Source: an uncultured Spirochaetales bacterium
GTDB lineage: Bacteria; Myxococcota_A; UBA9160; SMWR01
Assembly (NCBI GenBank): GCA_964653555.1
Contig: CAZZFT010000010.1
Coordinates: 6,389-70,388 of the forward strand
Direction: 5' to 3'
Length of the DNA stretch: 64,000 nt
Shown here: in pieces, positions 10,154 through 47,699 of the stretch
Position numbering within the stretch: position 1 is the stretch's first letter
How the letters are laid out: each line of letters opens with the position of its first letter
Notes under the pieces: generated by a model
What the model saw: the letters and a program-made list of their open reading frames with translations, nothing else
What the model was told of the DNA's origin: nothing
Database searches by the model: none
Translations under genes and position numbers: made by a program

Positions 10154-10177
10154 TCATCGGGGCGGGGATCCCCCTCG

Positions 10178-11418: not shown

Positions 11419-11472
11419 GCTGTGCGGCCGACGCGCGGACCCGCAAGCCCGAAGCAACGGGCTCCCGCCAGG

Positions 11473-12633: not shown

Positions 12634-12685
12634 GGTTCCCTTCTAGCAGCTTCGTCGGATCCGGGCCGTGCGGATGCCGTGAGAA

Positions 12686-12728: not shown

Positions 12729-12824
12729 GCACCCGGAGCCCGGGCAGCAAGGGAGCGAGGTCCCGGGGCCGGGCGCAAGAATCGACGTCCGGTGCATCGG
12801 CGCGCGCAGACGTCCGGGCTCGGA

Positions 12825-13424: not shown

Positions 13425-13567
13425 CTGTCACCACCTGACGCGTTCCGTGAGCCCGAGTCAGGGCATCACGACACTCGATGGATTCTGTGGGAGGCATTGC
13501 GGTCGCGGCAATACCCCAGGGCATCATGTGCGCCCGTTACCGAGGTCGGCCCACCAGAAAAGTGTCG

Positions 13568-13578
13568 GAACTGCGCGG
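13568..13578. repeat. right copy of 11-bp direct repeat GAACTGCGCGG
   Basis: Identical to 12709-12719. Confidence 0.3.
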
Positions 13579-13635
13579 CGCGACGGAAAGCGGGGCGCGA
13601 CGGGACGCAAGTGTCCTTGCGGCCCGCGATCCCGT

Positions 13636-16136: not shown

Positions 16137-16137
16137 G

Positions 16138-29495: not shown

Positions 29496-29499
29496 CTCT

Positions 29500-30438: not shown

Positions 30439-30441
30439 GGG

Positions 30442-31587: not shown

Positions 31588-31729
31588 GGGTCACCTCCCC
31601 CTGTTCGCGAGGACCTGCGCAGTCTATCGCGGACGCGGCCTGCGGCGCGCCGTCTCGGCCGCGAGGGTCCGATCCGCGTCTCTCTGCATTTTCCTTCTCT
31701 GACTCGCGCCGGTGGTGTAGGTCTAGCGC

Positions 31730-33400
31730 GTGGCCCGCACCGCTCCCGAAGCCCTGGACACGCCTCGCTTCCCCGACTACGAGCCGACCGTTCCGAGGTT
31801 CCTGGCCGAGGTCGCCAAGGGCCACCGCGAGCGGCCGCTGATCGCACTCGGCGACCGCCGCATCAGCTACGCCGAGGCCGAGCGCGCCTCCGCCCGCCTC
31901 GCCCGCGGTCTGCTGGCCCGGGGCATCGCGAAGGGCAGCCACGTGGCCGTGCTGGCGCCGAACGGCCCCGACTGGGTGGTGTGGTGGCTGGCCGCGGCGC
32001 GCGTCGGCGCCGTCGTGGTTCCCCTCAACACCTTCTACAAGCCGCGCGAGCTCGGCTACGTGCTCCGCCACGCCGACGTGCAGGCGCTGATCGCGGTGCC
32101 GCGACTCCTGAGCCACGACTACCTGGAGCGCATCGAGGCCTGCGCGCCGTCGCTCGCCGGTCAGGCCCCGTCGGCGCTGTCCGCGCGCGAGCTCCCGCTG
32201 TTGCGGCGTGTCTTCGTCGCCGGGGACGGCGGGGGACGCAGCTGGGCGACCCCGCTCTCGGAGCTCGAGGCCACCGCCGACGCCTCACCGGCGCCGGACG
32301 GGTCCCGGCTCGCCGAGATCGAGGCGGCCGTCCGCCCGGCCGATCCCATGCTCCTGATCTACACCTCGGGCAGCACCGGCGATCCGAAGGGCGCCCTGCA
32401 CAGCCAGGGAGCGCCGATCCGGCACGCCTACAACCTGAACCGGTTCCGCGATCTCGAGACCTCCGACCGCATCTTCTCTCCGATGCCCTTCTTCTGGGTG
32501 GGCGGCTTCGTGTTCACGCTCCTCTCGGCGATGCACGTCGGGGCCTTCCTGGTCTGCGAGGAGGCGTTCGAGCCCGGCGAGACCCTGGCGCTGCTCGAGC
32601 GCGAGCGCGTGACGATCGCCGCCGGCTGGCCGCACTACGCGAAGGCGATGGTCGACCATCCGAGCTTCGCGTCGCGCGATCTCCGCTCGATCCGTTCGGG
32701 CAACCTCTACGCCGTCCTGCCCGAGGCGTCGCGGCCGGCGGACCCGGAGCTGCGGTCGAACTCGCTCGGGATGACCGAGACCTGTGGTCCCCACACGATC
32801 GACCGGATGGACGTCGATCTCCCCGAGCGGCTGCGCGGGTCCTTCGGTCGCTCGGTTCCGGGCCTCGAGCACAAGATCGTCGACCCGCAGACCGGCGAGA
32901 CGCTCGGGCCCGGTCGCGTCGGCGAGATCTGCGTGCGCGGCTACAGCCTGATGCTCGGTCTCTACAAGCGGGAGCGCGAGGAGGTCTTCGACCGCGACGG
33001 CTACTACCACACGGGAGACGCGGGCCACTTCGATGCCGAGGGCTACCTCTTCTTCTCGGCCCGGCTCGGGGAGATGATCAAGGCCGCCGGCGCGAACGTG
33101 ACCCCGCGCGAGGTGGAGGTCGCGATCGAGGCGCTTCCCGAGGTGGTGTCGGCCTTCGTCGTGGGCGTGCCCGATCCCGTCCGGGGACAGGCCGTGGCCG
33201 CGGCGGTGGTGCTCAAGCGCGGCGCCGCCCTCGACGCCGACACCGCCAGCGCGCGCCTGCGCGACGAGCTGGCGAGCTACAAGGTGCCGCGCCACTGGCT
33301 CTTCGCGTCGAAGGAGGAGCTGCCCTTCACCGACAGCGGCAAGATCGACAAGAAGCGGCTGGCGGTGCTGCTGGCCGAGCACCCCGGCATGGGCGTCTAG
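31730..33400 (+). CDS. AMP-dependent acyl-CoA synthetase/ligase (FadD-like)
   Basis: 556 aa, GTG start, divergent from the ACAD operon. AMP-binding motif 'LIYTSGSTGDPKG', plus 'YHTGDAG' and the C-terminal 'DSGKIDKKRL'. Confidence 0.9.
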   Translation: MARTAPEALDTPRFPDYEPTVPRFLAEVAKGHRERPLIALGDRRISYAEAERASARLARGLLARGIAKGSHVAVLAPNGPDWVVWWLAAARVGAVVVPLNTFYKPRELGYVLRHADVQALIAVPRLLSHDYLERIEACAPSLAGQAPSALSARELPLLRRVFVAGDGGGRSWATPLSELEATADASPAPDGSRLAEIEAAVRPADPMLLIYTSGSTGDPKGALHSQGAPIRHAYNLNRFRDLETSDRIFSPMPFFWVGGFVFTLLSAMHVGAFLVCEEAFEPGETLALLERERVTIAAGWPHYAKAMVDHPSFASRDLRSIRSGNLYAVLPEASRPADPELRSNSLGMTETCGPHTIDRMDVDLPERLRGSFGRSVPGLEHKIVDPQTGETLGPGRVGEICVRGYSLMLGLYKREREEVFDRDGYYHTGDAGHFDAEGYLFFSARLGEMIKAAGANVTPREVEVAIEALPEVVSAFVVGVPDPVRGQAVAAAVVLKRGAALDADTASARLRDELASYKVPRHWLFASKEELPFTDSGKIDKKRLAVLLAEHPGMGV

Positions 33401-33518
33401 CCACCGCGGACCGGATCGCCCGTCTCGCTTCGGTGAGCCGATCGTTTCGCGAAGCGCAGCGGGTCGAGCTCCGGGATCGTCGAGTGCGAATCGAAGCCGG
33501 CGGGCTCCTTCCTCGACG

Positions 33519-33914
33519 TCAACCGGACCGCGTCGACCCTGGTGCGCGAGCGCGCAGGATGATTCCGCAGCCTGCGCCCCAGACGACCATCACGACTGCG
33601 AGCGTCCGACCCGCGGTGCCCAGCGCCGGCGCGGGGAAGGCCGCGTGCGAGGGGGTGGGAGCTGGCGCCGCCGCATCGGCGGGTGGCGACGGCGCAGGCT
33701 GTAGGGGCAACGCGCCGCGGCTCCGATCGCTCGAGGAAACGATCACGATCAGCCCCCCACCGTCCGAGTCCTCCGGCGGTCCCGTTCCGCTGACCACCAC
33801 GACCGTGGTGTCGCCGTCACATGCCATCAGCGCGCACGTGGTCGAGATCGACGCGAGCAGGCGGCGAAGCACTCGACCCGAGGGCATCCACATCCGCATG
33901 CAGCATCTTGGCAC
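33519..33914 (-). CDS. hypothetical small protein (weak call): lipobox-like N-terminus, C-terminal hydrophobic helix + Arg tail
   Basis: Only ORF in a 0.73-kb gap. Has 'RRLLASISTTCALMAC|DGD' (lipobox-like LMAC) and the C-terminal 'LAVVMVVWGAGCGIILRARA'. My hand count of third-position G+C is about 81%, between coding (~90%) and non-coding values. It may not be a gene. Confidence 0.3.
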   Translation of the reverse strand: MPRCCMRMWMPSGRVLRRLLASISTTCALMACDGDTTVVVVSGTGPPEDSDGGGLIVIVSSSDRSRGALPLQPAPSPPADAAAPAPTPSHAAFPAPALGTAGRTLAVVMVVWGAGCGIILRARAPGSTRSG

Positions 33915-34126
33915 GAATCGGACCGACTCTCGCGGGCGTACGACGCAATTCCACTTCCCCGATCTTGCGAGAATCCAATGTGGAGCTCGCGCAGGATGTG
34001 GCTCATGCCGGGGAAGGTCGAGAGAGAGAAGGCGCGGCCGCGACGCCCGTGCTCGAGCGCCCCGCGTCCCGGCGGGGACGCCGCGCCGTGAAGCCCGGCC
34101 GACGGCGGCGTGGGTCGCCGGTTCGC

Positions 34127-35117
34127 TCAGCCCGTCACGCGGCGGAGCAGCTCGCCGGCCCGCTCCACGCTGCCCTCCTCGTGGCGTCGGCGGGAAGGTT
34201 CACGATCACCCCGTCGAGCCCGACTCCGAGGACCCGGTCCTGGAGGAACTCGCCGACCGTATCGGCGTCGCCCAGGAGAAGCGCCTGGTCGATCGTCCGC
34301 TGCATGTTCTCGGGGAGCTTCGCGAAGTCGATGCCGCGCCGGTGGAGGAACCCGTCGCGCGCTCTCTCGGCCTCCTCCGGGGTGGGAGCGAGGATCATCG
34401 AGCCGAGCCACGAGACGCCGATGCTCGCGCGGTCGCGCCCGACGTCGGCGCAATGGCGCTCGAGTGCCTCGAGCTTGCGCGGAACGTCCGAGGGCGGACA
34501 CGTCCAGTTGCTCTCGTCGGCGAACTCGGCGACGAGCCGGAGCGTCCGCTTCTCGCCCGTATCCCCGATCAGGATCGGTGGGCCGCCCGCGCGCACGGGC
34601 GGCGGCTCGTTCAGCGCTTCGCTAGCGCGATAGAAGGCGCCCTCGAACGATGGTCGCTTGCCGCGCAGCATGGGATGGATGATCTGGAGTGCTTTCTCCA
34701 GACGGCCGAGCCGCTCGCCGAGCGGTAGGAACTCGAAGCCGTAGCCGCGGTGCTCGACGTCGAACCAGCCGGCCCCGATCCCGGCGAGCGCGCGCCCGCG
34801 CGACACGACGTCGAGCGTGGTGACCATCTTCGCCAGCAGTGCAGGGTTGCGGTAGGTGTTGCCCGCCACCAGGGTCGACAGGCTCACGCGCTCCGTACCC
34901 GCCGCGAGGGCCCCGAGCAGCGTGTACGCCTCGAGCATTAGGCGTCCGGCGGACCGAGCGCGGGTAGCTGGTAGAAGTGGTCCCTCACCAGCACCGTGTC
35001 GAAGCCCGCCTGCTCTGCCCGTCGCGCGATCGAGCCGACGGCCTCGAACAGACCCGCTGCGTCCACGCCGGGGTAGGTGAAGTTCGGGATCTGGAGGCCT
35101 CGGCGAATGACGGGCAT
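34127..35117 (-). pseudogene. LLM-class F420-dependent oxidoreductase (Rv1855c-like), disrupted by at least one frameshift
   Basis: The ATG at 35117 gives 'MPVIRRGLQIPNFTYPGVDAAGLFEAVGSIARRAEQAGFDTVLVRDHFYQLPALGPPDA*', with TAA at 34938-34940. The family sequence continues in another frame from the overlapping ATG (TAATG, 34936-34938) as 'MLEAYTLLGALAAGTERVSLSTLVAGNTYRNPALLAKMVTTLDVVSRGRALAGIGAGW...'. Near 34180-34190 the family-like C-terminus ('HEEGSVERAGELLRRVTG*', ending at 34127) switches frame again. Confidence 0.7.
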
Positions 35118-36472: not shown

Positions 36473-36499
36473 TTGCTTCGACCCGCGCGGGAGCGATCC

Positions 36500-37048
36500 G
36501 TGCCCGCGGGTCCCGCACCACCCCCATCTGAGGCCGAGACGATCGATCCGCGATCTCCCGCAGGCGTCGCGCGCCGCGCCACACGCCGCCGCCCGGACTT
36601 CGAGCCACCCCCGCGCGCGCGGACCGCCCGGCTCGCAGCGGTCCTGCTCGCGATCGCTCCTCTCGCCGCCGCGGCGCAGGTCGATCTCTCGGCGTCGCCC
36701 GAGTCGTCCAGCGACGGGGTGATCCAGGTCCGCTGGTCGGGAGCCGACGGAGTCGTGCTCGAGGAGTCGCGTCGTCCCGACTTCGCAGACGCGCACGAGG
36801 TGTACCGAGGGACCGATCGCTCGACCGTGCTGACGGGTCGCATCGACGGCGCCTATCACTACCGTCTGCTCGCGCTCGACGGCTCCGATCCCATCGCCCC
36901 GGACGTGAACGTGGAGGTCGCGCACCATCCGCTCCCGCGCGCCTTCGCCTTCTTCGGCGTGGGTCTGTTCGTCTTCGTCTGCACGACGGCACTGGTGTTG
37001 AGCGATCCCGATCCCTCCGGGCCGAGCGGGGACGACGCGCATGGGTGA
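36500..37048 (+). CDS. bitopic membrane/secreted protein with FN3-like beta-sandwich segment, unknown function
   Basis: The GTG at 36500 is preceded by GGGAG with 6-nt spacing; the track start at TTG 36473 is an alternative. Has the signal/anchor 'RTARLAAVLLAIAPLAAAAQ', the domain 'VIQVRWSGADGVVLEESRRPDFADAHEVYRGTDRSTVLTGRIDGAYHYRLLA' and the C-terminal TM 'AFAFFGVGLFVFVCTTALVL'. Its stop overlaps the next start by 8 nt. Confidence 0.55.
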   Translation: MPAGPAPPPSEAETIDPRSPAGVARRATRRRPDFEPPPRARTARLAAVLLAIAPLAAAAQVDLSASPESSSDGVIQVRWSGADGVVLEESRRPDFADAHEVYRGTDRSTVLTGRIDGAYHYRLLALDGSDPIAPDVNVEVAHHPLPRAFAFFGVGLFVFVCTTALVLSDPDPSGPSGDDAHG

Positions 37049-38282
37049 TATCCTGCGGATCGACGCGGCCCGGCTCGAGTCGGACATCGCGACGCTGGGT
37101 GAGATCGGTCGCAACGAGGAGCGCGGGCTGAATCGGACCGCCTTCAGCGAGGGCGACATGGCGGGCCGCGCCTGGCTGACGGCGCAGATCGAGAAGGCGG
37201 GTCTGTCGCCTCGGCTCGACGGCGCGGCCAATCTCGGGACGCGGCTGCTCGGGGAGCGGGACGACCAGCCTTGCGTCATGACCGGCTCGCACATCGACAC
37301 GGTTCCGGGGGCCGGACAGCTCGACGGCGCCCTGGGCGTGCTGTGCGGTCTCGAGGTGTTGCGCGTGCTCTCCGCGTCGCGCATTCCGCTGCGGTGCCCG
37401 ATCGAGCTGGTCGCCTTCAGCGACGAGGAAGGCCGCTTCGGCGGGATGCTCGGCTCCCAGGCGATGAGCGGCCGGCTCACGCCCGAGTCGATCCACGCCG
37501 CGCGCGACCTCGACGGGATCCCGCTCGTCGAGGCGATGGCCGAGCGGGGCTACCGCGCGATGGACGCGCTGAAGGCCGAACGCGAGCCCGGCAGCATCCA
37601 CGCCTTCGTCGAGCTGCACATCGAGCAGGGCCCGGTGCTGGACCGCCGCGGGTCCTCGATCGGACTGGTCGACGCGATCACGGGCCTGTTCCGCTGGGAC
37701 GTGCGCTTGATCGGGGAGGCCAACCACGCGGGCACCACGCCGATGGATCTGCGCCGCGACGCCTTCCAGGGCCTGGCGGAGCTGGCGGGCGAGATCGATC
37801 GGGTGCTCGAGGAGCACGGGACCGCGCGCAGCCGCGCGACGATCGGCCGTGTCGATCTGCATCCGGGAGCTGCGAACGTGGTGCCCGGCGAGGCCCGCTT
37901 CGCGCTCGAGGTGCGCGACACCGACGCGCGCACCCTGGAGGAGCTGTCCCACGGCTTCCGCCGTGCGCTCTCGGCGATCGCACGGCGCCGAAACCTGATG
38001 TTCGAGTTCCAGGTGGTGAGCGAGATCGCTCCGGTGAGCTGCAGCGAGCGTGTGATGGAGGCGGTGCGCCGGGCCTGCGGAGAGCTCGGCGTCGAGCCCC
38101 TGGCGATGCCGAGCGGGGCCGCCCACGACACCCAGATGATCGCGGGCATCGCACCGGCCGGGATGATCTTCGTGCCCAGCCGCGCCGGTCGCAGCCACTC
38201 GCCGGCCGAATGGACCTCGCCCAGCGACATCGAGCTCGGAGCCAACGTGCTGCTCCACACCCTGCTGGATCTCGCGTCGTGA
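37041..38282 (+). CDS. M20-family Zn hydrolase: allantoate amidohydrolase / N-carbamoyl-L-amino-acid hydrolase (carbamoylase) type
   Basis: 413 aa. Has 'GSHIDTVPGAGQLDGALGV', 'VAFSDEEGRFGG', 'HAFVELHIEQGPVL', 'ANHAGTTPM' and 'MPSGAGHD'-like 'MPSGAAHDTQ', characteristic of the AmaB/AllC/HyuC subfamily. Confidence 0.9.
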   Translation: MGDILRIDAARLESDIATLGEIGRNEERGLNRTAFSEGDMAGRAWLTAQIEKAGLSPRLDGAANLGTRLLGERDDQPCVMTGSHIDTVPGAGQLDGALGVLCGLEVLRVLSASRIPLRCPIELVAFSDEEGRFGGMLGSQAMSGRLTPESIHAARDLDGIPLVEAMAERGYRAMDALKAEREPGSIHAFVELHIEQGPVLDRRGSSIGLVDAITGLFRWDVRLIGEANHAGTTPMDLRRDAFQGLAELAGEIDRVLEEHGTARSRATIGRVDLHPGAANVVPGEARFALEVRDTDARTLEELSHGFRRALSAIARRRNLMFEFQVVSEIAPVSCSERVMEAVRRACGELGVEPLAMPSGAAHDTQMIAGIAPAGMIFVPSRAGRSHSPAEWTSPSDIELGANVLLHTLLDLAS

Positions 38283-39067
38283 GCAAGCCGACGCCGAGCG
38301 AGCCGAAGCTCGATCCGGAAGACGCCTCCGTGACGGAAGCGGCACACCCCGAGTACCTGAACGTCGACCCGCTGCGCGAGAGCTACCGCGAGGCGTTCAT
38401 CGAGAGCCCCGCCCTTCGCCGCTCGGTCGAGCATCTGAGCACGGCGCTCTTGTGCATCGACATGCAGTACCTCGACGCGGCGCCGGGCGTCGGCGTCTTC
38501 GCCGACGCCGTGGTCTCGGGGGTCGCTCCCGAGGCGCAGGAATACTACTTCGACCGGCTCGACAAGGTGGTACTGCCGAACGTCCGCCGCCTGCAGGAGA
38601 CCTTCCGCGCCGCCGGTCTGGAGGTGATCCACACACGCATCCAGTCGCTGACCCGCGACGGCCGCGACCGCAGTCCGGGCCACAAGCGTCTCGGCCTGCA
38701 CGCGCCTCCGGATTCGAAGGAGGCGGAGTTCCTGGAGGTGGTGGCGCCCCAGGGCGACGAGATCGTGATCGACAAGACGGCCTCCGGCGTCTTCAACTCC
38801 ACCAACCTCTCCTACGTCCTGCGCAACCTCGGGATCACCGGCCTCTTCGTCACCGGCGTCTACACCAACGAGTGCGTCTCCACCGCGATCCGCGACGCGT
38901 GCGACCTGGGCTTCTACACCACGCTGATCTCCGACGGCTGCGCGACCGTCACGCCGGAGCTGCAGGAGGCGACGATCACCACGCTGCGCGATCGCTACTC
39001 CCGGGTGCGCACCACCGAGGAGGCGATCGCCGAGGTCCAGCACCTCGTGGGGCTCGAGCATGGATGA
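38279..39067 (+). CDS. isochorismatase-family cysteine hydrolase (N-carbamoylsarcosine amidase / RutB / nicotinamidase-like)
   Basis: 262 aa. The GTG overlaps the upstream stop (GTGA). The Asp-Lys-Cys triad contexts are visible: 'LLCIDMQ', 'VIDKTASGVF' and 'VTGVYTNECVSTAIRDA'. About 45 aa of N-terminal extension. Confidence 0.88.
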   Translation: MSKPTPSEPKLDPEDASVTEAAHPEYLNVDPLRESYREAFIESPALRRSVEHLSTALLCIDMQYLDAAPGVGVFADAVVSGVAPEAQEYYFDRLDKVVLPNVRRLQETFRAAGLEVIHTRIQSLTRDGRDRSPGHKRLGLHAPPDSKEAEFLEVVAPQGDEIVIDKTASGVFNSTNLSYVLRNLGITGLFVTGVYTNECVSTAIRDACDLGFYTTLISDGCATVTPELQEATITTLRDRYSRVRTTEEAIAEVQHLVGLEHG

Positions 39068-40514
39068 CCTGAGCTCGGCGGTGCTCGATCCGCGCACCGG
39101 GTGGTGGATCCTCGCGGGCTTCAGCGTGCTCTGGGTGGTGCTCGGCGGCTGGCTCGGGCGGGGCTCGGACGACCTCGAGGGGTTCATGCTCGCCGGCCGC
39201 CGGGTCGGTCTCGCCCTCGGCGTGGCGACCGCGATGGCCACCTGGGTCACGAGCAACACCACGATGGCCGCGCCGCAGCTCGCCTTCCAGCTCGGCGTCT
39301 GGGGCATGATCGGATACTCCCTGGGCGCGGTGGGCCTGCTGCTCTTCGCGCCGCTCGCCAAGCGCATCCGCGAGCTGATGCCGGGAGGCTTCACCAGCGG
39401 CGACTTCGTTCGCCTGCGCTACGGCGCCACCGCCTGGCGTGTCTTCCTCGCCATCTCCTTCTTCTACGCCCTCGGCTGGCTGATCTCGATGGGCATGGCG
39501 GGAGGCGTGCTGATCCAGGCGCTCACCGGCATCCCCTACCGCTTCGGAATGAGCGTGATCGTCGCGATCTGCGTGCTCTACACGCTGATCGGCGGCCTGC
39601 GCGCGGTGATCGGCACCGACTTCGTCCAGACCCTGATCATCCTGGTCGGCGTCACGTTGCTGGCGTGGCTGGCGATCGACCGCGTCGGCTTCGGCGTGAT
39701 GCACGACGCCGTCCAGGCCGAGAGCCCCGAGCTGCTCGACCTGCTGATGCCCGCCGCGATCATGTTCCTGTTCAACAACCTGCTCTTCGGCGTGGGAGAG
39801 ATCTTCCACTCGAACGTGTGGTGGAGCCGGGCGTTCGCTTTCCGCGAGGGCGTCGGACGGCCCGCCTACCTGATCGCGGGCTTGCTGTGGATTCCGATCC
39901 CGATCGTGGCCGGCTTCGTGGCACTCACCGTGCCCGCCCAGGGGTTGAACGTGCCGTCCGCCGACATGGTGGGGCCGCTGGTGGCGGCGAACCTGCTCGG
40001 CGAGAGCGGCGCCGTGCTCGTCTTCATCGTCGTGTTCGCCGCGCTCGCCTCCAGCCTCGACTCGCTGCTCGCCGCCACCTCGGACCTCGTGCTCACCGAC
40101 CTCTACAAGGGTCACCTGCGCCCCGACGCGACATCCGACGACCTCGCGCGCGCGGCGCGCTGGGTGGTGCTAGGGCTGGGCGTGGTGACCTGGCTGTTGT
40201 GCCTGCCCCGGCTCGCGACCCTCGCCGAGTTGCTCCACTTCACCGGCGCCTTCGTCGCCAGCACGATCTGGCCGATCGCCGCAGGCCTGTACTGGCGCCG
40301 CGCCAGTGCGGGCGGCGCCGTGGCCGGGATGATCCTCGGCACCACCGCCGGGCTGCTCGCCTACTTCGCGATCGGCTTCTACGTCGCGGCGCTGGTCTCG
40401 GCCGCCGTGTCGATGTGCGCCGTGTGGCTCGCCGCGCGGCTCCGGCCCGACGACTTCGACTGGCTCGCACTCGCAGCGACCGGACCGGTCGCGCAAGAGG
40501 AAACGCGCGCATGA
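39060..40514 (+). CDS. sodium:solute symporter (SSS) family transporter
   Basis: 484 aa with about 13 hydrophobic segments. Has 'FMLAGRRVGLALGVATAMATWVTSNT' and 'SGDFVRLRYG', typical of SSS permeases. The start overlaps the upstream stop by 8 nt. Confidence 0.9.
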   Translation: MDDLSSAVLDPRTGWWILAGFSVLWVVLGGWLGRGSDDLEGFMLAGRRVGLALGVATAMATWVTSNTTMAAPQLAFQLGVWGMIGYSLGAVGLLLFAPLAKRIRELMPGGFTSGDFVRLRYGATAWRVFLAISFFYALGWLISMGMAGGVLIQALTGIPYRFGMSVIVAICVLYTLIGGLRAVIGTDFVQTLIILVGVTLLAWLAIDRVGFGVMHDAVQAESPELLDLLMPAAIMFLFNNLLFGVGEIFHSNVWWSRAFAFREGVGRPAYLIAGLLWIPIPIVAGFVALTVPAQGLNVPSADMVGPLVAANLLGESGAVLVFIVVFAALASSLDSLLAATSDLVLTDLYKGHLRPDATSDDLARAARWVVLGLGVVTWLLCLPRLATLAELLHFTGAFVASTIWPIAAGLYWRRASAGGAVAGMILGTTAGLLAYFAIGFYVAALVSAAVSMCAVWLAARLRPDDFDWLALAATGPVAQEETRA

Positions 40515-40633
40515 CGGCCTCCGTTTCGTTCCTTTCCTGGTTGATCACCGGTGCGACGGTCGTGGCGACGATCGCGCCGGTGGTGCTGATCGTCCTCTGG
40601 ATTCGCGACGCGCGGAGAGGGAACCTGTGGTGA
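40511..40633 (+). CDS. 40-aa single-pass membrane peptide coupled to the SSS transporter
   Basis: The ATG overlaps the transporter stop (ATGA), and its own stop overlaps the next start. Sequence 'MTASVSFLSWLITGATVVATIAPVVLIVLWIRDARRGNLW'. Hand-counted third-position G+C is about 87%, which is coding-like. It is below the track's length threshold as a separate ORF. Confidence 0.55.
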   Translation: MTASVSFLSWLITGATVVATIAPVVLIVLWIRDARRGNLW

Positions 40634-41682
40634 ACGCGAGCCTCGACGCGAAGCTGGCCGACATCCAGAGCGAGCCGGCCCTCGACACCCAGGGCTTCGA
40701 GCGGCCTCGGGCGTTGATGGACGCGGTGTCCGAGAACCTGGCACCGCTGCTCGAGCTGGCGAGTCGACCCGTGATCACGGCGCGTCAGTTCGAACGGGAT
40801 CAGATCGCGCAGCTGTGCCGGCTCGCTGCGCGCTACGAGACCCAGCCCCAGCGGATCATCCGGCCGCTGACCGGCAAGATCCTGGTCAGCGCCTTCTACG
40901 AGCCCAGTACTCGCACGCGGCTCTCCTTCGAGAGCGCCTGGCACCGCCTCGGGGGCGACGTGATGTCGATCACCGACCCGTTGTCGACCGGCATCGCCAA
41001 GGGCGAGTCCCTCCAGGACATCGGGGAGATGCTGAACCACTACGGAGATCTGGTGGTGCTGCGCGACTCCGACGAGCGCGCCGTGTACGAGATGCTCGAG
41101 ACGCTCCGCATCCCCATCGTAAACGGTGGCAACGGGCTCGACGAACACCCGACCCAGGCGCTGGCCGACGTGTACGCGCTGCTCAAGTGGCGCCCCGAGA
41201 TCGCGAGCAGCGGGCTGGAGGCTCCCGCGCGGATCGGGATCATCGGCGTGCCCGGACGCATGCGCACGGTGCGCAGCCTGCTGATCCTGCTGACCCGCTT
41301 CGCGGCGAGCATCGAGGAAGTGGTGATCGTCACCGACGAGGAGGAGCCCTTCTCCGAGGGGCAGCAGAAGGAGCTCGACGAGGGCGGCTTGCGGCTGTCC
41401 GTCTCGAATCGGCTCGACGCGACGCTGCCGCAGCTCGACGTCGTCTACATCAACTCGATCGCCTGGAAGGGTGGCGACTACGAGGAGATGGGCGCGAACT
41501 TCCGTCTCGGCGCCGACTCGCCGCTCAAGCCGGGAGCCATCGTCCTGCATCCCCTCGCGCGCGGCGAGGAGCTCGACACCAGCCTCGACGAGACCCCCCA
41601 CAACTGGTACTTCGCGCAGGCGCGCGGAGCCGTCTTCATCCGCATGGCGTTGCTCTCGGCCATGCTCAAGACCTACGTCTGA
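40627..41682 (+). CDS. aspartate/ornithine carbamoyltransferase-family enzyme, PyrB-like but with altered second-substrate pocket
   Basis: 351 aa from GTG 40627, or GTG 40630 which would give a GTGA overlap. Carbamoyl-phosphate motifs 'EPSTRTRLSFE' and 'DEHPTQALAD', then 'LHPLARG' (PyrB has HPLPR) and the PyrB-like C-terminus 'TPHNWYFAQARGAVFIRMALLSAML'. The segment aligned to E. coli 'DILYMTRVQKER' reads 'DVVYINSIAWKG'. About 40 aa of N-terminal extension. Confidence 0.85.
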   Translation: MVNASLDAKLADIQSEPALDTQGFERPRALMDAVSENLAPLLELASRPVITARQFERDQIAQLCRLAARYETQPQRIIRPLTGKILVSAFYEPSTRTRLSFESAWHRLGGDVMSITDPLSTGIAKGESLQDIGEMLNHYGDLVVLRDSDERAVYEMLETLRIPIVNGGNGLDEHPTQALADVYALLKWRPEIASSGLEAPARIGIIGVPGRMRTVRSLLILLTRFAASIEEVVIVTDEEEPFSEGQQKELDEGGLRLSVSNRLDATLPQLDVVYINSIAWKGGDYEEMGANFRLGADSPLKPGAIVLHPLARGEELDTSLDETPHNWYFAQARGAVFIRMALLSAMLKTYV

Positions 41683-41694
41683 GGAACCCGAACC

Positions 41695-43707
41695 ATGTGC
41701 GGAATCGCCGGCATCCTCCACGCCGACCGCGCCCGACCGGTCGACCCGGAGACGCTCGTCGCGATGGCGGCGATCCAGCACCACCGCGGTCCCGACGGCT
41801 TCGGCTGGCGCGCGCTGGAGGGCGTGGGAATGAGCCACGCGCGCCTGTCGATCATCGATCTCGACGAGGAGCGCGCCCGACAGCCCTTCACGAGCCGCGA
41901 CGGCAGTCTCCTGCTGGCGCACAACGGCGAGTTCTACGACTACAAGCGCCTTCGCGCGAACTTGTTCGCGCTCGGTGAGCGCTTCGACACCAAGAGCGAC
42001 TCCGAGCTCGTCCTGCACCTCGTGCCGCGGCTCGGTCTGGAAAGGACGCTGGCGGAGCTGCGCGGCGAGTTCGCCTTCGCGCTCTACGACCGCTCTCAGG
42101 ACACGCTGCATCTGGTTCGGGACCGCTTCGGCATCAAGCCGCTCTACTGGTGCTGCACCGGAGACACGCTGGTGTTCGGCTCGGAGCTCAAGGTGCTCTT
42201 CGCGCATCCCGAGGTTCCGCGGCGCTTCGATCCCGCCGGTCTCTACCACCAGCTCATGCAGGCGATCGTGCCCGGCTCGACGGCCTTCGAAGGCGTGCGT
42301 CAGGTGGCGCCCGGACACGTGCTGAGCGTGCGCCGGCGGGACGGCCGCTTCGCGATCGAGGATCGCCGCTACTGGGACATGCCCTTCCCCGAGGAGGGGG
42401 CCCACGCCGCCCTGTCGGACGAGCAGGCGATCGCTGCCGTGCGCGAGAAGCTGCTGGAGGCTGTGCAGCTGCGGCTCGAGGCCGACGTCCCGGTGGGTTG
42501 CTACCTCTCGGGCGGCATCGACTCCTGCTCGATCCTGGGCCTCGCTTCGGCCGCTCAGCAGTCGCCGGTCAAGGCCTTCACGATCGGCTTCGACAACGAC
42601 GACTACGACGAGACGCCGATCGCGCGCACGATGGCGGAGTCGGCGGGGGCCGACCAGGACGTACTGCGCCTCGACGCGACCCATCTCTACGACCACTTCG
42701 AAGAGACCCTCTGGCACACCGAGCGCACGATCTACAACACCCTCGCAGTGGCGAAGCTGTTGATGAGCCGTCACGTGAAGGAGGCGCGCTACAAGGTCGT
42801 GGTGACCGGGGAGGGCTCGGACGAGCTCTTCGCCGGCTACCCGGCGTTCCGCAACGATCTGTTCCTCCACGGTCTGGATCACATGCCGCCGACCGAGCGC
42901 CGGGAGTGGGAGAAGCTGCTGCACGAGAAGAACGCGCTGTTCAAGGGCGCGATGCTGGCGGAGAACGAGATCGCGGATCCCGCGCTCACGGAGCGCATCG
43001 GCTTCACGCCGGCCTGCCTCCAGCCGTGGCTGGCGGCGTCCCACCACGTGCCGGGCGTGCTGAACCGCGACCTGGCCGCGAAGCTCGAGGGCTACCAGCC
43101 GGGGCGGGCGATCGCAGAGACGCTCGACGCCGACGCGCTGGCCGGTCGACATCCCCTCGACCGGGCGCAGTACGTGTGGATCAAGACGATGCTCGAGGGA
43201 CAGATCCTCACCTGGGGCGGCGATCGGGTCGACATGGCGAACTCGATGGAGGCGCGCCCGGCCTTTCTCGATCACCATCTGGCCGAGCTCGCCGCGACGC
43301 TGCCGCCGACGGTTCGCATCCGCGGCCGTACCGAGAAGTGGGTGTTGCGCGAGGCGATGAAGGGCCTCTTGCCGCGCGTGCTCTACGAGCGCGAGAAGTT
43401 CGCGTTCATGGCGCCGCCCGCCCACACGGATCCGCGCAAGTGGGCCGCGATGCGCGGTCTGGCCGAGCGCCATCTCTCGCCGGCGGCGATCGAGGACGCG
43501 GGGCTACTCGACGCGGAGGGCGTCGCCGCGCTCTTCGCGCTGCACGACGCCCCCGACACCACGGTGGCGACGCGCAACACCCTCGACGCCGTGTTCAACC
43601 ACCTGATCGGCGTCCAGGTGCTGCACCGTCAGTTCGTCGCCAGCGACGTCCCGGCCCAGGCGCGCGAGCGCGCCCGGGAGCTCGGCTGGCGCGCTGAGGC
43701 GCGCTGA
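41695..43707 (+). CDS. asparagine synthase family glutamine-dependent amidotransferase (long AsnB/AsnO-like form)
   Basis: 670 aa, RBS GAGGAA. N-terminal nucleophile 'MCGIAG', then 'HRGPDG' and 'HNGEFYDY'. PP-loop 'CYLSGGIDSCSI'. Confidence 0.92.
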   Translation: MCGIAGILHADRARPVDPETLVAMAAIQHHRGPDGFGWRALEGVGMSHARLSIIDLDEERARQPFTSRDGSLLLAHNGEFYDYKRLRANLFALGERFDTKSDSELVLHLVPRLGLERTLAELRGEFAFALYDRSQDTLHLVRDRFGIKPLYWCCTGDTLVFGSELKVLFAHPEVPRRFDPAGLYHQLMQAIVPGSTAFEGVRQVAPGHVLSVRRRDGRFAIEDRRYWDMPFPEEGAHAALSDEQAIAAVREKLLEAVQLRLEADVPVGCYLSGGIDSCSILGLASAAQQSPVKAFTIGFDNDDYDETPIARTMAESAGADQDVLRLDATHLYDHFEETLWHTERTIYNTLAVAKLLMSRHVKEARYKVVVTGEGSDELFAGYPAFRNDLFLHGLDHMPPTERREWEKLLHEKNALFKGAMLAENEIADPALTERIGFTPACLQPWLAASHHVPGVLNRDLAAKLEGYQPGRAIAETLDADALAGRHPLDRAQYVWIKTMLEGQILTWGGDRVDMANSMEARPAFLDHHLAELAATLPPTVRIRGRTEKWVLREAMKGLLPRVLYEREKFAFMAPPAHTDPRKWAAMRGLAERHLSPAAIEDAGLLDAEGVAALFALHDAPDTTVATRNTLDAVFNHLIGVQVLHRQFVASDVPAQARERARELGWRAEAR

Positions 43708-43723: not shown

Positions 43724-44863
<1,140 letters not shown>

Positions 44864-44916
44864 GATGCCTCCGAGAGAGCGGGCGGCCCAGCATACCGCA
44901 GCGCGCCGAGCCGCGA

Positions 44917-46365
44917 TCAGCCGCAGTCGTCGATCGCCGCGCGCAGGGAGCGCAGCTTCGCGCGGGCCTCGGCGTACTCGGCCTCGGGCGTCGAGTCGGC
45001 GACGATGCCCCCGCCCGTGTGCAGGTAGACCCGACCTCTCCGCACCAGGGCGGTGCGGATCACGACGCAGAGGTCGGCCCCTCCGCGCACGTCGAGGTAG
45101 CCGAGGGCGCCCGAGTAGAAGCCGCGCCGGACGGTCTCGAGCCCGTCGAGCACGCGCATCGCCGCGATCTTCGGTGCGCCGGTCATCGAGCCGGGCGGGA
45201 AGGTGGCGGCGACCGCGTCGAGGGCGTCGTGCTCGGGACGCAGTCGCCCGCGCACCGTCGACACCAGCTGGAACACCGACGCGTAGGGCTCCACCGAGAA
45301 GATTCCGGGCACCGCGATGGTGCCGGGCTCGCACACGCGTCCCAGGTCGTTGCGCACGAGGTCCACGATCATCACGTTCTCCGCCCGATCCTTGTCGGAG
45401 CAGGCCAGCGCCCGTCGCCGCGCGGCGTCCTCGGCGGGATGCGCGCCGCGGGAGGCGGTTCCCTTGATCGGCCGGCTCTCGACACCGCCGTCGGCGTCCA
45501 CGCGCAGGAAGCGCTCGGGAGAGCTGCTCGTGATCGCCACCTCGGGCAGGGCGAAGTGGGCGGCGAAGGGAGCCGGATCCCGCCGTCGCAGCGCGCGGTA
45601 GAGCCGCCACGGATCGCCCTCGAAGGACCGGTCGACGCGGTAGGTGAGACAGGCCTGGTAGATGCGACCGGCCGCGATCTGCTCGCCGATGTGCTCGACC
45701 GCCTTGCGGTAGTCGCCGATCTCGACGTCATCGCGGTCGGACGCTTCGCGTCGCTCCAGGGGTCTGGACCCGCGCGGCGGGCGGGTCGTCGGCCTCTCCA
45801 GCTTTCGCGCGAGGGACCGGGCCGCGATCTCCGCGCGCGCCCGCGCCCGGCTCGCGTCGACGGAGAAGCCGAGCCCCGACACCAGCGCGCTTCCGCACTC
45901 GTGGTCGAAGGCGACGATCGCGTCGACGAACAGCCACACTGCGTCGGGCAGTCCGAGATCGTCGGTGCCGTGCAATCGGTGCACGTCGAGCTGCTCGGCC
46001 AGCTCGTAGCCGAAGACGCCGACGGCTCCCCCGCAGAACGGGATCCCGGGATCGCACGGCGGCGCAGCGGGCATCAGCGCGCGGAGCGCCGGCAGCGTTG
46101 GGCCCACCGAGCTTGTCACGCCCGGAACCAGGCCTCCGTGTACGGCCCGCCGGCACTCCAGCTCGAGCGCGAGACCGCGGGCGCGCAGGACGAGATAGGG
46201 ATCGGCGCCGGCGAAGGAGAATCGGCCGATCTCGGGAAGCGGCAGGGCGCTCTCCAACAGCCAGGGCGCGTGCTCGCCGCGCAGCCGTTCGAAGACCCCG
46301 ACGGGGTCGAGGTCTCCGCCGAGGGGAAGCGAGAACTGGGCCGTCTGTCGCGGGGGAGCGGTCAT
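44917..46365 (-). CDS. chorismate-utilising enzyme, aminodeoxychorismate synthase component I (PabB)-like; anthranilate synthase I not excluded
   Basis: 482 aa from the ATG at 46365 (RBS GGAAAGG). Has '[10 protein letters not shown]', 'RPIKGT', '[19 protein letters not shown]', '[11 protein letters not shown]' and '[10 protein letters not shown]'. No glutaminase subunit is adjacent. Confidence 0.85.
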
Positions 46366-46449
46366 CGCGCCTTTCCGTGGCAACCGTATCGCAGGCGATC
46401 GGCGCGCAGCGAGCCTCGGCAGGCCGAGGGCATGGGCTAGCATCGCCGG

Positions 46450-47304
46450 ATGGATCGCACGTGCTACTTCCATGCCGGCTGTCCCGACGGCTTCGGTGCC
46501 GCCTGGTCGGTATGGAGAGCGTGGGGCGACGACGCCCGCTACATCCCACGCGGTCACGAGCCCGTCCCGAATCCGCGCTCCCACGTCGGCGACACGGTCG
46601 TGTTCGTCGACATCGCGCCCGACAACCGATACCTGTCCGAGCTCGCGGAGAATGCCGCACAGGTGGTCGTGCTCGATCACCATCTCAGCGCCCGCAACCG
46701 CTACCTCGCCGACCCGGCCGTCGCGAATCGGGTGGAGGAGGGCGGACACCGCATCGTGTTCGATCTCGCTCACTCGGGCGCGGTCCTCGCCTGGAGCTAC
46801 TTCCATCCCGAGGCCTCGCTCCCTCCGCTGCTCCAGTACGTCCAGGACCAGGACCTCTGGCACTGGCGTCTGCCGCGCTCGGAGGAGGTGAATGCCGCGA
46901 TCGGCTCGCACCCGCGCGAGTTCGCGGTGTGGGACGAGCTCGCCGGGCGCAGCCCGGAGGACCTGGCGCGCGAAGGCGCCCCGATCCTGCGCGCTCAGCG
47001 GGCCGAGATGTTGCGCACTCTCCAGAGCGCGCACCCGATCGCCGTGGGCGAGTACCGCGTGGAGGCGGTGAACGCCCAGCAGAACCGCAGCCACATCGGC
47101 CACGAGCTGGCAAAGCGCGCCGCCTTCGGGAATCCGATCGGTGTCGTCTACCGGGTGACCGGATCCCAGGTGGATGCCTCGATCTACTCGATCGGCGACG
47201 TCGACGTCTCCGCGATTGCCCACCGCTATGGAGGCGGTGGGCACCGCAACGCCTCCGGCTTCAGCGTCTCCCTGCGCATCTGGCTGGAGGACTTCTGCTG
47301 CTAG
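46450..47304 (+). CDS. DHH/DHHA1-family phosphoesterase
   Basis: 284 aa. Has 'YFHAGCPDGFGAA', the DHH motif 'VVVLDHHLS' and the DHHA1 motif 'YGGGGHRNASGF'. Confidence 0.85.
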   Translation: MDRTCYFHAGCPDGFGAAWSVWRAWGDDARYIPRGHEPVPNPRSHVGDTVVFVDIAPDNRYLSELAENAAQVVVLDHHLSARNRYLADPAVANRVEEGGHRIVFDLAHSGAVLAWSYFHPEASLPPLLQYVQDQDLWHWRLPRSEEVNAAIGSHPREFAVWDELAGRSPEDLAREGAPILRAQRAEMLRTLQSAHPIAVGEYRVEAVNAQQNRSHIGHELAKRAAFGNPIGVVYRVTGSQVDASIYSIGDVDVSAIAHRYGGGGHRNASGFSVSLRIWLEDFCC

Positions 47305-47618
47305 TCCCCCTTCGCTCGTCGAGGCGGCTGGAGCGGCGGGTGCTCGAGCGTCTCCCACTCCGAAGGTGTGAAGGTCCGCATGGCGAGCGCGTGGATCTCG
47401 CCGCCCATCTCCTCCGCGAGCGCGGCGTAGACCAGTCTCTGGCGCGCGACGCGCGAGAGACCCTCGAAGCGATCGGAGACGATGATGGCGCGGTAGTGGC
47501 CACCGCCGGACGCGGCGCCGGCGTGTCCGGCGTGCAGGTGGCTCTCGTCGACCAGGTCGAGGTGGCGCGCGTCCAGCGCCTCGCGCAGTCGGCTCTCGAT
47601 ACGGTGGTGCCGGTCCAT
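47301..47618 (-). CDS. bolA: BolA-family protein
   Basis: 105 aa from the ATG at 47618. Has 'LDLVDESHLHAGHAG', 'HYRAIIVSDRFEGLSRVARQRLVYAAL' and 'IHALAMRTFTPSEW'. It is the tail of track ORF 47301..48632. Confidence 0.85.
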   Translation of the reverse strand: MDRHHRIESRLREALDARHLDLVDESHLHAGHAGAASGGGHYRAIIVSDRFEGLSRVARQRLVYAALAEEMGGEIHALAMRTFTPSEWETLEHPPLQPPRRAKGD

Positions 47619-47699
47619 CGCGCCCGACTCTAGCTCGGGCCTGACGCGGATTCCGGCCGCCGCAGTGCTCGCAGGGCGACACGCGCTCGCCGGCGCGCG

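Follow-up and report, generated by a model that had tools for sequence, protein, structure and literature searches.

A relative of aspartate transcarbamylase without the aspartate-binding residues, in an operon with a probable role in the synthesis, uptake and degradation of an N-carbamoyl amino-acid amide

In a 64-kb stretch of bacterial DNA (the window), we describe a gene whose product, as judged from its aligned residues, is a relative of aspartate transcarbamylase (ATCase) without the residues that bind aspartate, and which belongs to an operon (Table 1) whose probable role is the synthesis, import and breakdown of an uncharged N-carbamoyl amino-acid amide; this amide may be a solute for protection against salt. 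The initial annotation had argued for a transcarbamylase acting on something other than aspartate, and this proposal is now supported by an invariant carbamoyl-phosphate site, the absence of the RxQxER motif, family scores below the curated cut-offs, and a neighborhood unrelated to pyrimidine synthesis, with pyrI, pyrC and other pyr genes absent among the neighbors, as had been stated. The operon context did not form part of that annotation, and it is this context that allows a concrete functional hypothesis to be put forward.

Table 1. Genes of the operon at 36473-43707 of the window, in their order.
Feature	Coordinates	Strand	Basis
Membrane protein, ~150-190 aa, start codon uncertain	36473..37048	+	First gene; ORF, tblastn
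M20 hydantoinase/carbamoylase-type amidohydrolase (L-carbamoylase-like)	37041..38282	+	Pfam Peptidase_M20 and M20_dimer
Isochorismatase-family cysteine amidohydrolase	38279..39067	+	Pfam Isochorismatase, E 8.9e-34
Sodium:solute symporter (SSS family)	39060..40514	+	Pfam SSF, E 2.3e-32
40-aa single-TM peptide	40511..40633	+	ATGA overlap with SSS stop
ATCase-like gene, 'HPLAR' clade ATCase-branch transcarbamylase	40627..41682	+	Pfam, NCBIfam, alignments, AlphaFold/Foldseek
AsnB-like glutamine-hydrolysing amidotransferase, 670 aa	41695..43707	+	Pfam GATase_6/7 and Asn_synthase

The ATCase-like gene begins with GTG and encodes a protein of 351 aa, which exceeds the Pfam cut-offs for both OTCace_N (E 1.7e-37) and OTCace (E 1.2e-11) and shares 31% identity with PyrB of E. 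coli (NC_000913.3; BLASTP, E 4e-47). Among the NCBIfam models, those for ATCase outscore the OTC, PTC and knotted families by far. The HMM check called for in the initial annotation nonetheless placed the protein below the cut-offs of both ATCase equivalog models, with 183.2 bits against 236.95 for TIGR00670 and 182 against 263 for NF002032. An identity within the OTCase branch (ornithine, putrescine, L-2,4-diaminobutyrate (DAB) and L-2,3-diaminopropionate (DAP) enzymes) was rejected, given that OTC models peak at 99 bits where their cut-offs are 281 or higher, the PTC model yields 71 against 500, and the DxxxSMG-type 240s-loop and H(C/D)LP motifs are absent from the protein. The knotted transcarbamylases (AOTCase, SOTCase, YgeW) were also set aside, with 30 bits for AOTCase and 27-28 for the YgeW models, over short stretches only. 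An AlphaFold model built on a shallow 24-sequence alignment has a pLDDT of 72.6, with residues 79-126 below 50; when this moderate model was searched with Foldseek, the top matches were all ATCases (E ~1e-20), with TM-scores of ~0.7 (query-normalised) and up to ~0.8 (target-normalised). The features of the transcarbamylase superfamily, namely a two-domain fold and the SxRT, HPxQ and HxL(P) motifs, are thus found with Ala in place of the Pro of HxLP as the sole deviation. Because homologues number in the thousands and share 70-79% identity across phyla, the gene can be taken as real and strongly constrained. A tblastn search with E. coli PyrB found no second ATCase homologue in the 64-kb window.

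Residue correspondences were taken from three independent alignments, i.e., HMMER against PDB ATCases, BLASTP against E. coli PyrB, and MAFFT of 76 sequences, and the wider HPLAR clade was sampled through a further 240 + 120 members (~360). The carbamoyl-phosphate site had been described as intact, and STRTR, HPTQ and HPLAR were indeed located at residues 94-98, 174-177 and 308-312, respectively. In the MAFFT alignment, all 75/75 relatives keep the carbamoyl-phosphate residues, K84 and R167/T168 unchanged, and FYEPSTRTR, R146 and HPTQ, which satisfy the FxExSTRTR/R105/HPxQ pattern, are invariant in these 75 as well as in the ~360 clade members. The HPLP motif, which in ATCase has a cis Leu-Pro peptide, is lacking, and HPLAR stands in place of HPLPR in 353 of 360 clade members. 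The strings DVVYINSIAWKG and VLRDSD are present in the protein, and the reportedly PyrB-like C-terminus does carry TPHNWYFAQARGAVFIRMALLSAML in a helix very like that of PyrB. Likewise, the ~40-aa N-terminal extension is real and conserved, since the alignment begins at query residue 44-46 against PyrB residue 5-6.

In ATCases, R229 and Q231 bind the β-carboxylate of aspartate, R167 and K84 position its α-carboxylate, and the RxQxER motif is said to be present in every known member (PMC4581275). All three alignments pair Y-I-N-S-I-A of the window protein with Y-M-T-R229-V-Q231, so that the replacements of Arg229 by Ser and Gln231 by Ala, originally read from a gapless comparison, hold in the same register; the RxQxER position reads S-I-A-W-K-G, with R234 replaced by Gly. 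The 'RD' noted for the 'RH' after Arg105 corresponds to H106→D, and further changes relative to E. coli PyrB comprise S80→G, deletion of K83, G166→M, T228→N, P268→A and A283→N; the HPLAR clade has gained a clade-specific Asn, Asn and Met. RxQxER is absent from the 75/75 close relatives and from the ~360 members of the wider clade, the family reading A, T or S at position 229 and A at 231 in 66/75 relatives, and because the pattern recurs in both sets, the loss of R229 and Q231 is a family trait and not a one-off. Arg/Gln equivalents supplied from a shifted position had been named as a finding that would overturn the proposal; in the ~360 members of the clade, the stretch matching residues 277-300 of the window protein, the equivalent of the 240s-loop region, holds no Arg, Lys or Gln that is conserved. 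As far as conserved residues indicate, the β-carboxylate site has been lost and the carbamoyl-phosphate site is intact in the HPLAR-clade enzyme.

The operon reads as translationally coupled: the stop of the first gene overlaps the M20 start (37041 vs 37048), the GTG start of the isochorismatase-like gene overlaps the M20 stop (GTGA, 38279-38282), and the peptide gene overlaps the ATCase-like start at GTGGTGA. The first protein is predicted to have a signal peptide or N-terminal TM segment, a β-rich domain and a C-terminal TM segment, and has no match in Pfam or NCBIfam. A tblastn search placed its homologues in 57 loci, each time immediately 5′ of the M20 or SSS gene; it occurs together with SSS in 44 loci and never without SSS, and is probably an accessory of the symporter. 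The 40-aa peptide, for which a gene of 39-40 aa was called at the same site in L082-L088 and tblastn matches were found in several loci, is probably a small symporter subunit. The symporter itself has weak similarity to PanF and PutP in NCBIfam, far below the cut-offs, and of the 63 loci that are fully covered, 57 have its gene directly upstream of the ATCase-like one.

The M20 protein scores 508 bits on NF006771 (cut-off 399) and 405 on the ErtE N-carbamyl-L-glutamate amidohydrolase model, below the cut-off of 520; its top solved structure is 3n5f, an N-carbamoyl-L-amino acid hydrolase (296 bits), ahead of ureidoglycolate hydrolase (214) and allantoate amidohydrolase (205). The top PDB relatives of the isochorismatase-like protein are the cysteine hydrolases 6xix/6xj4, N-carbamoylsarcosine amidohydrolase (1nba), biuret hydrolase (6xjm) and RutB, and its catalytic D, K and C (ciD.QyLDA, KTASGVF, NECVST) are invariant (n = 58 sequences). 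The AsnB-like protein reaches 421 bits on TIGR01536 in NCBIfam and stays below the cut-offs for AsnB (255/499), the AsnO of N-acetylglutaminylglutamine amide (NAGGN) synthesis (TIGR03104, 303/570) and TIGR03108 (392/817). Its nucleophile Cys2 and its PP-loop SGGIDS are each kept in 67/68 sequences, and its closest solved structures are a hydroxyamidotransferase, asparagine synthetases and β-lactam synthetase. Rfam revealed no riboswitch or other RNA leader upstream of the operon, and promoter and terminator scans gave nothing exceeding chance; a MarR regulator and carAB, which accompany the cassette elsewhere, are absent from the window.

At 50% identity, the HPLAR clade comprises hundreds of representatives, its sequences number in the thousands, and the cassette is shared between very different phyla at 55-79% identity. 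The ATCase-like and AsnB-like genes are adjacent in 78/79 informative loci from many phyla, mostly marine, with the AsnB-like gene directly 3′ of its partner on the gene maps; an AsnB-like match was found at the same locus in 77/77 loci with sufficient downstream sequence, plus L093. Hosts are mostly marine or saline lineages, including symbionts of lucinid clams, Kangiella, Idiomarina, Pseudoalteromonas, marine Synechococcus, Zetaproteobacteria, planctomycetes and myxobacteria, with Thiothrix nivea and a Methylomonas MAG bearing 'LW' in its contig label as non-marine-looking exceptions. In a variant arrangement, the order is carA-carB-ATClike-AsnBlike, beside a GgpS-like/phosphatase fusion, a type of gene used in osmolyte synthesis. 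In the Synechococcus locus, a DUF1028 protein takes the place of the isochorismatase-like enzyme. Rfam searches of eight other loci returned a Glutamine-II riboswitch (unrelated), a 5′ ureB sRNA match in the Synechococcus locus, a tRNA, and nothing else. Plasmid carriage was not found, the sole match being to a mislabelled Aeromonas chromosome that carries a canonical PyrB.

Taken together, these features lead us to propose, with moderate confidence, that the ATCase-like protein is an active, anabolic ATCase-branch transcarbamylase with a second substrate other than aspartate, that it and its AsnB-like partner would make an N-carbamoyl amino-acid amide, and that the symporter and hydrolases would import and undo this product. 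The transcarbamylase would N-carbamoylate an L-α-amino acid with a neutral and probably longer side chain, L-glutamine being the first candidate and asparagine the second; the choice of amino acid is a guess drawn from the residues that were lost, and the α-amine is the probable site of carbamoylation because R167 and K84 are kept. The AsnB-like enzyme would then amidate a carboxylate of the N-carbamoyl amino acid with ATP and glutamine, a step proposed because its adjacency is invariant and its catalytic motifs are intact, to give an N-carbamoyl amino-acid amide in which both charges are masked. The Na+/solute symporter and its two small membrane partners would take up this compound or its precursor. 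When the solute is consumed, the isochorismatase-like enzyme would hydrolyse the carboxamide and the M20 enzyme would then decarbamoylate; the two hydrolases mirror the synthetic steps, with the M20 protein nearest 3n5f and the isochorismatase-like protein nearest ureido-amide hydrolases. The anabolic direction is favored by the carAB-linked variant and by the lack of a carbamate kinase in any gene map examined. Furthermore, four loci hold both hydrolases and the ATClike-AsnBlike pair without the transporter, so that the hydrolases there must act on an endogenous product. As synthetic and degradative genes share one coupled operon, a futile cycle would result unless the activities are controlled post-translationally. 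Because a tightly coupled symporter gene accompanies the cassette in nearly every case, the substrate could instead be imported. The mostly marine or saline distribution of the cassette speaks for the proposal, and the hosts that do not look marine speak against it.

A specific candidate for the product is CGA, an osmolyte known since 1991 from one Dead Sea spring phototroph, Ectothiorhodospira marismortui, its known producer. We suggest only tentatively that CGA is what the ATClike-AsnBlike pair makes and that the surrounding cassette serves its uptake and degradation. Reviews name CGA as an osmolyte and do not give genes for it, and full-text literature searches found no paper on CGA genes or on a carbamoyltransferase for Glu, Gln or Asn; searches on PyrB-like enzymes, the five-gene combination, locus tags in Kangiella fitness data and Idiomarina solutes likewise returned nothing on the family. 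No Ectothiorhodospira occurs among the named proteins matched, which, with about one quarter of the proteins named, is not evidence of absence.

Several other readings of the operon were weighed. The ureido-amide could serve as a building block that is processed further, by hydantoin- or pyrimidine-like cyclisation or by attachment to another molecule, yielding a specialised metabolite or signal and not an osmolyte. This is suggested by actinobacterial HPLAR relatives (~45% identity), which lie in clusters with thymidylate-synthase-like, nucleoside-deoxyribosyltransferase-like and dCMP-deaminase-like genes, together with TenA, ThiD-like and Cupin_8 genes and NRPS parts, and by one locus (L092) with an Amidohydro_1 gene of the dihydroorotase/hydantoinase type, in whose map an AsnB-like gene was not called. 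The presence of actinobacterial pairs among pyrimidine-modifying genes implies that the module can serve other products. We nevertheless regard this reading as improbable: the subfamily of the window has no further conserved tailoring enzyme, its flanking genes vary between loci, what is conserved beside the pair is a transporter with two hydrolases that run the synthetic steps in reverse, and the identity of the cassette across phyla is a pattern seen more typically in physiological modules than in natural-product clusters.

A catabolic role is unlikely in our judgment. Under it, the symporter would import a ureido compound, such as an N-carbamoyl amino acid or a ureide resembling allantoate or ureidoglycine, which the ATCase-like enzyme would cleave with phosphate to release carbamoyl phosphate, and the hydrolases would free further ammonia for nitrogen scavenging. 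The frequency of the Na+ symporter and the presence of two ureide/amide hydrolases would fit, as would the Synechococcus cassette, which lies near ureC and a Glutamine-II riboswitch, a nitrogen-assimilation neighborhood. In addition, ureidoglycine transcarbamylase (UGTCase) is a member of the ATCase branch, with Ser258 suggested where E. coli ATCase lists Arg229 (PMC4581275). Yet the carbamate kinase expected of such a pathway appears in no locus map examined, the H(T/S)LP motif of UGTCase is absent from a clade that reads HPLA, and the constant partner, with its catalytic residues intact, consumes ATP and glutamine, which would be senseless for nitrogen scavenging. The carAB of the variant operon supply carbamoyl phosphate and do not consume it, and the transporter-less loci retain the hydrolases and the pair.

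It is also conceivable, though very improbable, that the AsnB-like enzyme adenylates and aminates the ureido carbonyl, so that the pair converts an amine to a guanidino group in two steps and yields an N-amidino amino acid. The strict adjacency of the pair and the intact PP-loop and glutaminase domain would allow for this, and such chemistry has precedent among PP-loop enzymes, as argininosuccinate synthetase and GMP synthetase adenylate and aminate ureido-type carbonyls. To our knowledge, however, all characterised AsnB-family enzymes activate a carboxylate, those with the nearest solved structures are the hydroxyamidotransferase, asparagine synthetases and β-lactam synthetase named above, and an L-carbamoylase-like M20 enzyme with an amide hydrolase fits a ureido-amide better than a guanidine. 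Lastly, that the protein is still an ATCase for pyrimidine synthesis, with aspartate contacted by other residues, has ATCase models and structures as its top family-level matches and the kept R167 and K84 in its favor, but is largely refuted and barely tenable given the clade-wide loss of RxQxER without a conserved replacement, the scores below curated ATCase cut-offs, the lack of pyr context, and the name lately given by NCBI, which is only 'aspartate/ornithine carbamoyltransferase family protein'.

Transcarbamylases are a textbook family in which specificities are still emerging; a 2015 review listed nine and remarked that an engineered transcarbamylase making N-carbamylglutamate would have great value (PMC4581275). 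None of these nine matches the HPLAR clade, and most of its sequences carry the label 'aspartate carbamoyltransferase', very probably in error. Since the enzyme is always paired with an amidotransferase, and a dedicated transporter and two matching hydrolases usually accompany it, one operon is enough to read the whole metabolism of a nitrogen-rich small molecule. This operon is widespread, without previous study, and present in strains available in culture, among them Kangiella aquimarina DSM 16071, Idiomarina, Pseudoalteromonas and Rosistilla. Were the product CGA or a relative, a 30-year gap in osmolyte biochemistry would be closed, a nitrogen-rich solute would join marine metabolite inventories, and a natural enzyme for the production of N-carbamoyl amino acids would be at hand; in the case of CGA, the solute of one Dead Sea spring phototroph would prove to be a product of very many different kinds of organism.

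Compared with known systems, the ATCase-like protein shares with PyrB (EC 2.1.3.2) the two-domain fold, identical S52, T53, R54, T55, R105, H134 and Q137, the kept K84 (80s loop), R167/T168 and E50, and a very similar C-terminal helix. Unlike PyrB, the HPLAR clade lacks RxQxER (R229→S/A/T, Q231→A, R234→G) and has HPLA for HPLP, and the window protein has the conserved 40-aa N-terminal extension, sub-cut-off scores, and an AsnB-like partner instead of a pyrI/pyrC context. UGTCase of Rubrobacter xylanophilus, compared here by description only, likewise falls in the ATCase branch and retains R189 as the equivalent of R167. Its substrate is a neutral isostere of aspartate, the residues suggested for its second substrate are Ser258 and Lys261 and not the Arg/Gln pair, and it carries an H(T/S)LP motif and is presented as enabling some bacteria to draw energy from a metabolite of purine degradation (PMC4581275). 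An identity with UGTCase was rejected, as neither H(T/S)LP nor a carbamate-kinase context was found; by that same description, the HPLAR clade is set apart by HPLA, an anabolic partner and no nearby carbamate kinase.

The synthesis of NAGGN by AsnO and Ngg offers a parallel for the second step, since an AsnB-family amidotransferase there forms the carboxamide at the end of a glutamine derivative that is N-acylated, giving an uncharged 'carboxamine' osmolyte, and the AsnB-like protein of the window scores on the AsnO model, albeit well short of its cut-off. The two systems differ in that N-blocking is ascribed here to a carbamoyl-phosphate transcarbamylase, versus the GNAT/ATP-grasp Ngg, and in that the proposed product carries a carbamoyl group, versus an acetyl-glutaminyl group. 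The DAB and DAP transcarbamylases of the padanamide, zwittermicin and viomycin pathways (PMC4581275) similarly acquired new amino-acid substrates through changes in the 240s loop and HxLP. However, these are OTCase-branch enzymes (HDLP, TRWQ(S/T)(M/T)G) whose target is an amine in the side chain, whereas the HPLAR clade belongs to the ATCase branch and probably carbamoylates the α-amine.

The ORF that the initial annotation had singled out as ATCase-like is real: the ORF listing of the window gives it a GTG start, and its product carries both transcarbamylase Pfam domains. Three alignments (HMMER against solved ATCases, BLASTP against E. coli PyrB from NC_000913.3 at 31% identity and E 4e-47, and a 76-sequence MAFFT alignment) all set Y-I-N-S-I-A opposite Y-M-T-R229-V-Q231 of E. 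coli, and therefore R229 is replaced by Ser and Q231 by Ala, as had been claimed. The carbamoyl phosphate binders S52, T53, R54, T55, R105, H134, and Q137 are all kept, as are K84 and R167/T168, and the alignments also bear out the other proposed departures, namely HPLAR for HPLPR (protein residues 308-312), R-D for R105-H106, and about 40 additional residues ahead of the ATCase core. According to a 2015 family review, the beta-carboxylate of aspartate is anchored by R229 and Q231 and its alpha-carboxylate positioned by R167 and K84, and every known ATCase carries an RxQxER motif (PMC4581275). The carbamoyl-phosphate and alpha-carboxylate sites are thus shown to be complete and the beta-carboxylate site absent, and by the definition in that review the protein is not an ATCase. 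Its best NCBIfam matches are two ATCase equivalogs, on which it reaches 183 bits (cut-off 237) and 182 bits (cut-off 263), with far lower scores for the OTC, PTC, and knotted families; these scores agree with its non-ATCase status and, together with the lost RxQ residues, support the earlier reading of a non-aspartate transcarbamylase. The AlphaFold model is only moderate.

Judging from its relatives, this active-site pattern is a family trait and no accident. Relatives at 70-79% identity number in the thousands, in Myxococcota and many Gammaproteobacteria, and those at 55-79% occur in 80 species-level genomes. Of 75 full-length relatives, all retain the carbamoyl-phosphate site, K84, and R167/T168 without variation; all likewise have Gly for S80, Met for G166, and Ala for P268, and lack K83. 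R229 is replaced by Ala, Thr, or Ser, and Q231 in most of them by Ala. A library-wide HMMER search returned 289 representatives at E <= 1e-30 and also brought to light a deeper sister group (42-46% identity) with the same signature. In the clade named after HPLAR (240 + 120 members sampled), the motif is present in 353 of 360, with Ala replacing the HxLP Pro, to our knowledge a cis-peptide residue in every solved transcarbamylase. Among these 360, the 240s-loop equivalent has no conserved Arg, Lys, or Gln, which counts against the lost pair being supplied from a shifted position, the refuting case named in the initial annotation. The clade has its own invariant residues, N276 (E. coli T228), N326 (A283), M212 (G166), G122 (S80), and P209. 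On sequence grounds, the protein is either the founder or a member of an uncharacterized transcarbamylase subfamily of the ATCase branch, which is very probably mis-annotated in most databases. A third group, of ~355-aa proteins (P0276-P0294 and P0343) with 35-41% identity to the window protein, has in common with it the N-terminal extension and the helix 'HNGYFAQxRGxVFVRMAL' at the C-terminus; the carbamoyl-phosphate motifs of this group are degenerate (STRTR to, e.g., NSRTR, LSETR, or HNHTR; HPTQ to NPTH, HPTN, or RPVH; HPLAR to HPELR or NPHIQ), and it may be non-catalytic or perform different chemistry.

Features of the window and of homologous loci (L-numbers)
Sequence	Feature	Coordinates	Strand	Remark
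Window	Gene 1, ~190-aa membrane protein	36473-37048	+	No family match
Window	Gene 2, M20 hydantoinase/carbamoylase-type amidohydrolase	from 37041	+	Best solved relative 3n5f
Window	Gene 3, isochorismatase-family cysteine hydrolase	from 38279	+	Invariant D-K-C triad
Window	Gene 4, Na+/solute symporter (SSS)	39060-40514	+	
Window	Gene 5, 40-aa transmembrane peptide	40511-40633	+	No family match
Window	Gene 6, ATCase-like protein	40627-41682	+	351 aa; both Pfam domains; HPLAR about 41548-41562
Window	Gene 7, AsnB-like glutamine amidotransferase	to 43707	+	670 aa
Window	Family III CoA-transferase	43724-44962	-	Convergent; family-library scan
Window	Aminodeoxychorismate/anthranilate synthase component I-like	44917-47682	-	Long ORF; by-eye reading
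Window	DHH-type phosphoesterase	46450-47304	+	By-eye reading
Window	Spurious ORF	29116-34728		1870 aa
L060	MarR-type regulator	12440-12895	-	
L072	Stretch with DUF1028 gene (after the cassette), riboswitch, and urease gene	12463-16277		Marine Synechococcus
L072	Glutamine-II riboswitch	13631-13692	-	69.6 bits
L072	Urease alpha-subunit gene	14568-16277	-	5' ureB sRNA match within
L089	Actinobacterial-type cluster	9001-19104		
L091	carA-carB-ATClike-AsnBlike operon with neighboring genes	1-11929		Marine metagenome contig
L092	Actinobacterial-type cluster	499-18996		
L093	Actinobacterial-type cluster	7022-19080		

The ATCase-like gene holds sixth place among seven same-strand genes with overlapping starts and stops (37041/37048; GTGA 38279-38282; 39060/39067; ATGA 40511-40514; GTGGTGA 40627-40633), followed after a 12-nt gap by the AsnB-like gene, where the operon ends because the next gene is convergent. 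For the M20 protein, the N-carbamoyl-L-amino-acid hydrolase 3n5f scores 296 bits, higher than the allantoate and ureidoglycolate hydrolases, and the nearest solved relatives of the isochorismatase-like protein include the 6xix/6xj4 cysteine hydrolases, N-carbamoylsarcosine amidohydrolase, biuret hydrolase, and RutB. The genes of the two small membrane proteins lie on either side of the symporter gene, and their occurrence follows its own, which suggests an SSS transporter with three components. None of the three ORFs downstream is conserved beside the cassette elsewhere. At ~71% G+C, long spurious ORFs abound in all six frames of the window, and ORF length alone is therefore no gene evidence there.

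Gene context was counted by tblastn of the window proteins against the fetched loci. The identical cassette in identical order occurs in 37 of the 63 fully covered loci, the symporter gene in 57 of the 63, and the first membrane protein only with the symporter (44 loci vs 0). An AsnB-like match was found in all 77 loci with sufficient downstream sequence; in gene maps this gene lies directly 3' of the ATCase-like gene, also in actinobacterial L093, the sole exception being L092, whose cluster has no AsnB-like call and includes an Amidohydro_1 gene. In Idiomarina and Thiothrix nivea, the pair is accompanied by transporter genes only, in Kangiella and Pseudoalteromonas by an M20 gene in addition, and marine Synechococcus shows the order SSS-ATClike-AsnBlike-M20-DUF1028; four transporter-less loci combine both hydrolases with the pair, and all seven genes, differently ordered, occur in the planctomycete Rosistilla carotiformis. 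Some cassette hosts are non-marine in appearance. A conserved MarR-type regulator gene lies divergently beside the cassette in about 35 loci (e.g., L009, L016, L019, and L088; also L060, L085, and L086), orthologous from planctomycetes to gammaproteobacteria at 40-50% identity, and is absent from the window and the Myxococcota loci. In one lineage (L091), dedicated CarAB genes precede the pair; its ATCase-like protein (316 aa) lacks the N-terminal extension. Encoded next to this operon are a cNMP-binding protein and a protein joining a sucrose-phosphatase-like to a GgpS/OtsA-like domain; the best NCBIfam match of this fusion, on a truncated protein, is glucosylglycerol-phosphate synthase (344 bits). 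The actinobacterial-type relatives (L089, L092, and L093) sit among thymidylate-synthase-like, nucleoside-deoxyribosyltransferase-like, dCMP-deaminase-like, TenA, ThiD-like kinase, APH kinase, and Cupin_8 genes, with NRPS parts and a radical-SAM gene in addition in L089; these look like modified-pyrimidine or nucleoside natural-product gene clusters.

We infer that the conserved cassette is a make-import-break module for a putative N-carbamoyl amino-acid amide. Acting in the synthetic direction, the ATCase-like enzyme would N-carbamoylate an L-alpha-amino acid whose side chain is neutral, and its constant partner, an ATP- and glutamine-dependent amidotransferase with Cys2 and the PP-loop SGGIDS intact in 67 of 68 orthologues, would then convert a carboxylate of that product to a carboxamide. 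The two hydrolases, going by their closest matches at hand, would reverse both steps, as an amidase of ureido-amides and then an L-carbamoylase, and the symporter would supply or recapture the compound. Glutamine can be reasoned to fit as substrate because two bulky beta-carboxylate binders are lost and two invariant asparagines gained; asparagine or another neutral amino acid is possible. Given the near-universal, tightly coupled symporter, the pathway could also start from an imported compound.

That the pair makes a building block for a further-processed metabolite is unlikely; the actinobacterial pairs, lying in clusters rich in pyrimidine-modifying genes, do indicate that the two-enzyme module has been recruited for other products. 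A catabolic role yielding carbamoyl phosphate is rather improbable, being disfavored by the amidotransferase partner, the carAB fusion, the transporter-less variants, and the lack of a carbamate kinase in any locus map examined. Conversion of a ureido to a guanidino-type group by the AsnB-like enzyme is chemically conceivable, yet without family precedent and highly improbable. A true ATCase is essentially excluded by the loss of R229/Q231 and the sub-cut-off scores.

For the N-carbamoyl amino-acid amide, one candidate is CGA, a solute of this type known from one producer, Ectothiorhodospira marismortui; reviews name it without genes, and our literature search found nothing on its biosynthesis. 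If true, the hypothesis would provide an orphan compatible solute with its genes, and it is specific and cheap to test. With the genes for making and degrading the compound in a single coupled operon, a futile cycle would follow unless prevented by post-translational control of activity; a precedent for such co-transcription is Synechocystis, in which ggpS and the glucosylglycerol hydrolase gene gghA are co-transcribed. In the proposed amino-acid product, a carbamoyl and an amide group would mask both charges, as in the design of the 'carboxamine' osmolytes.
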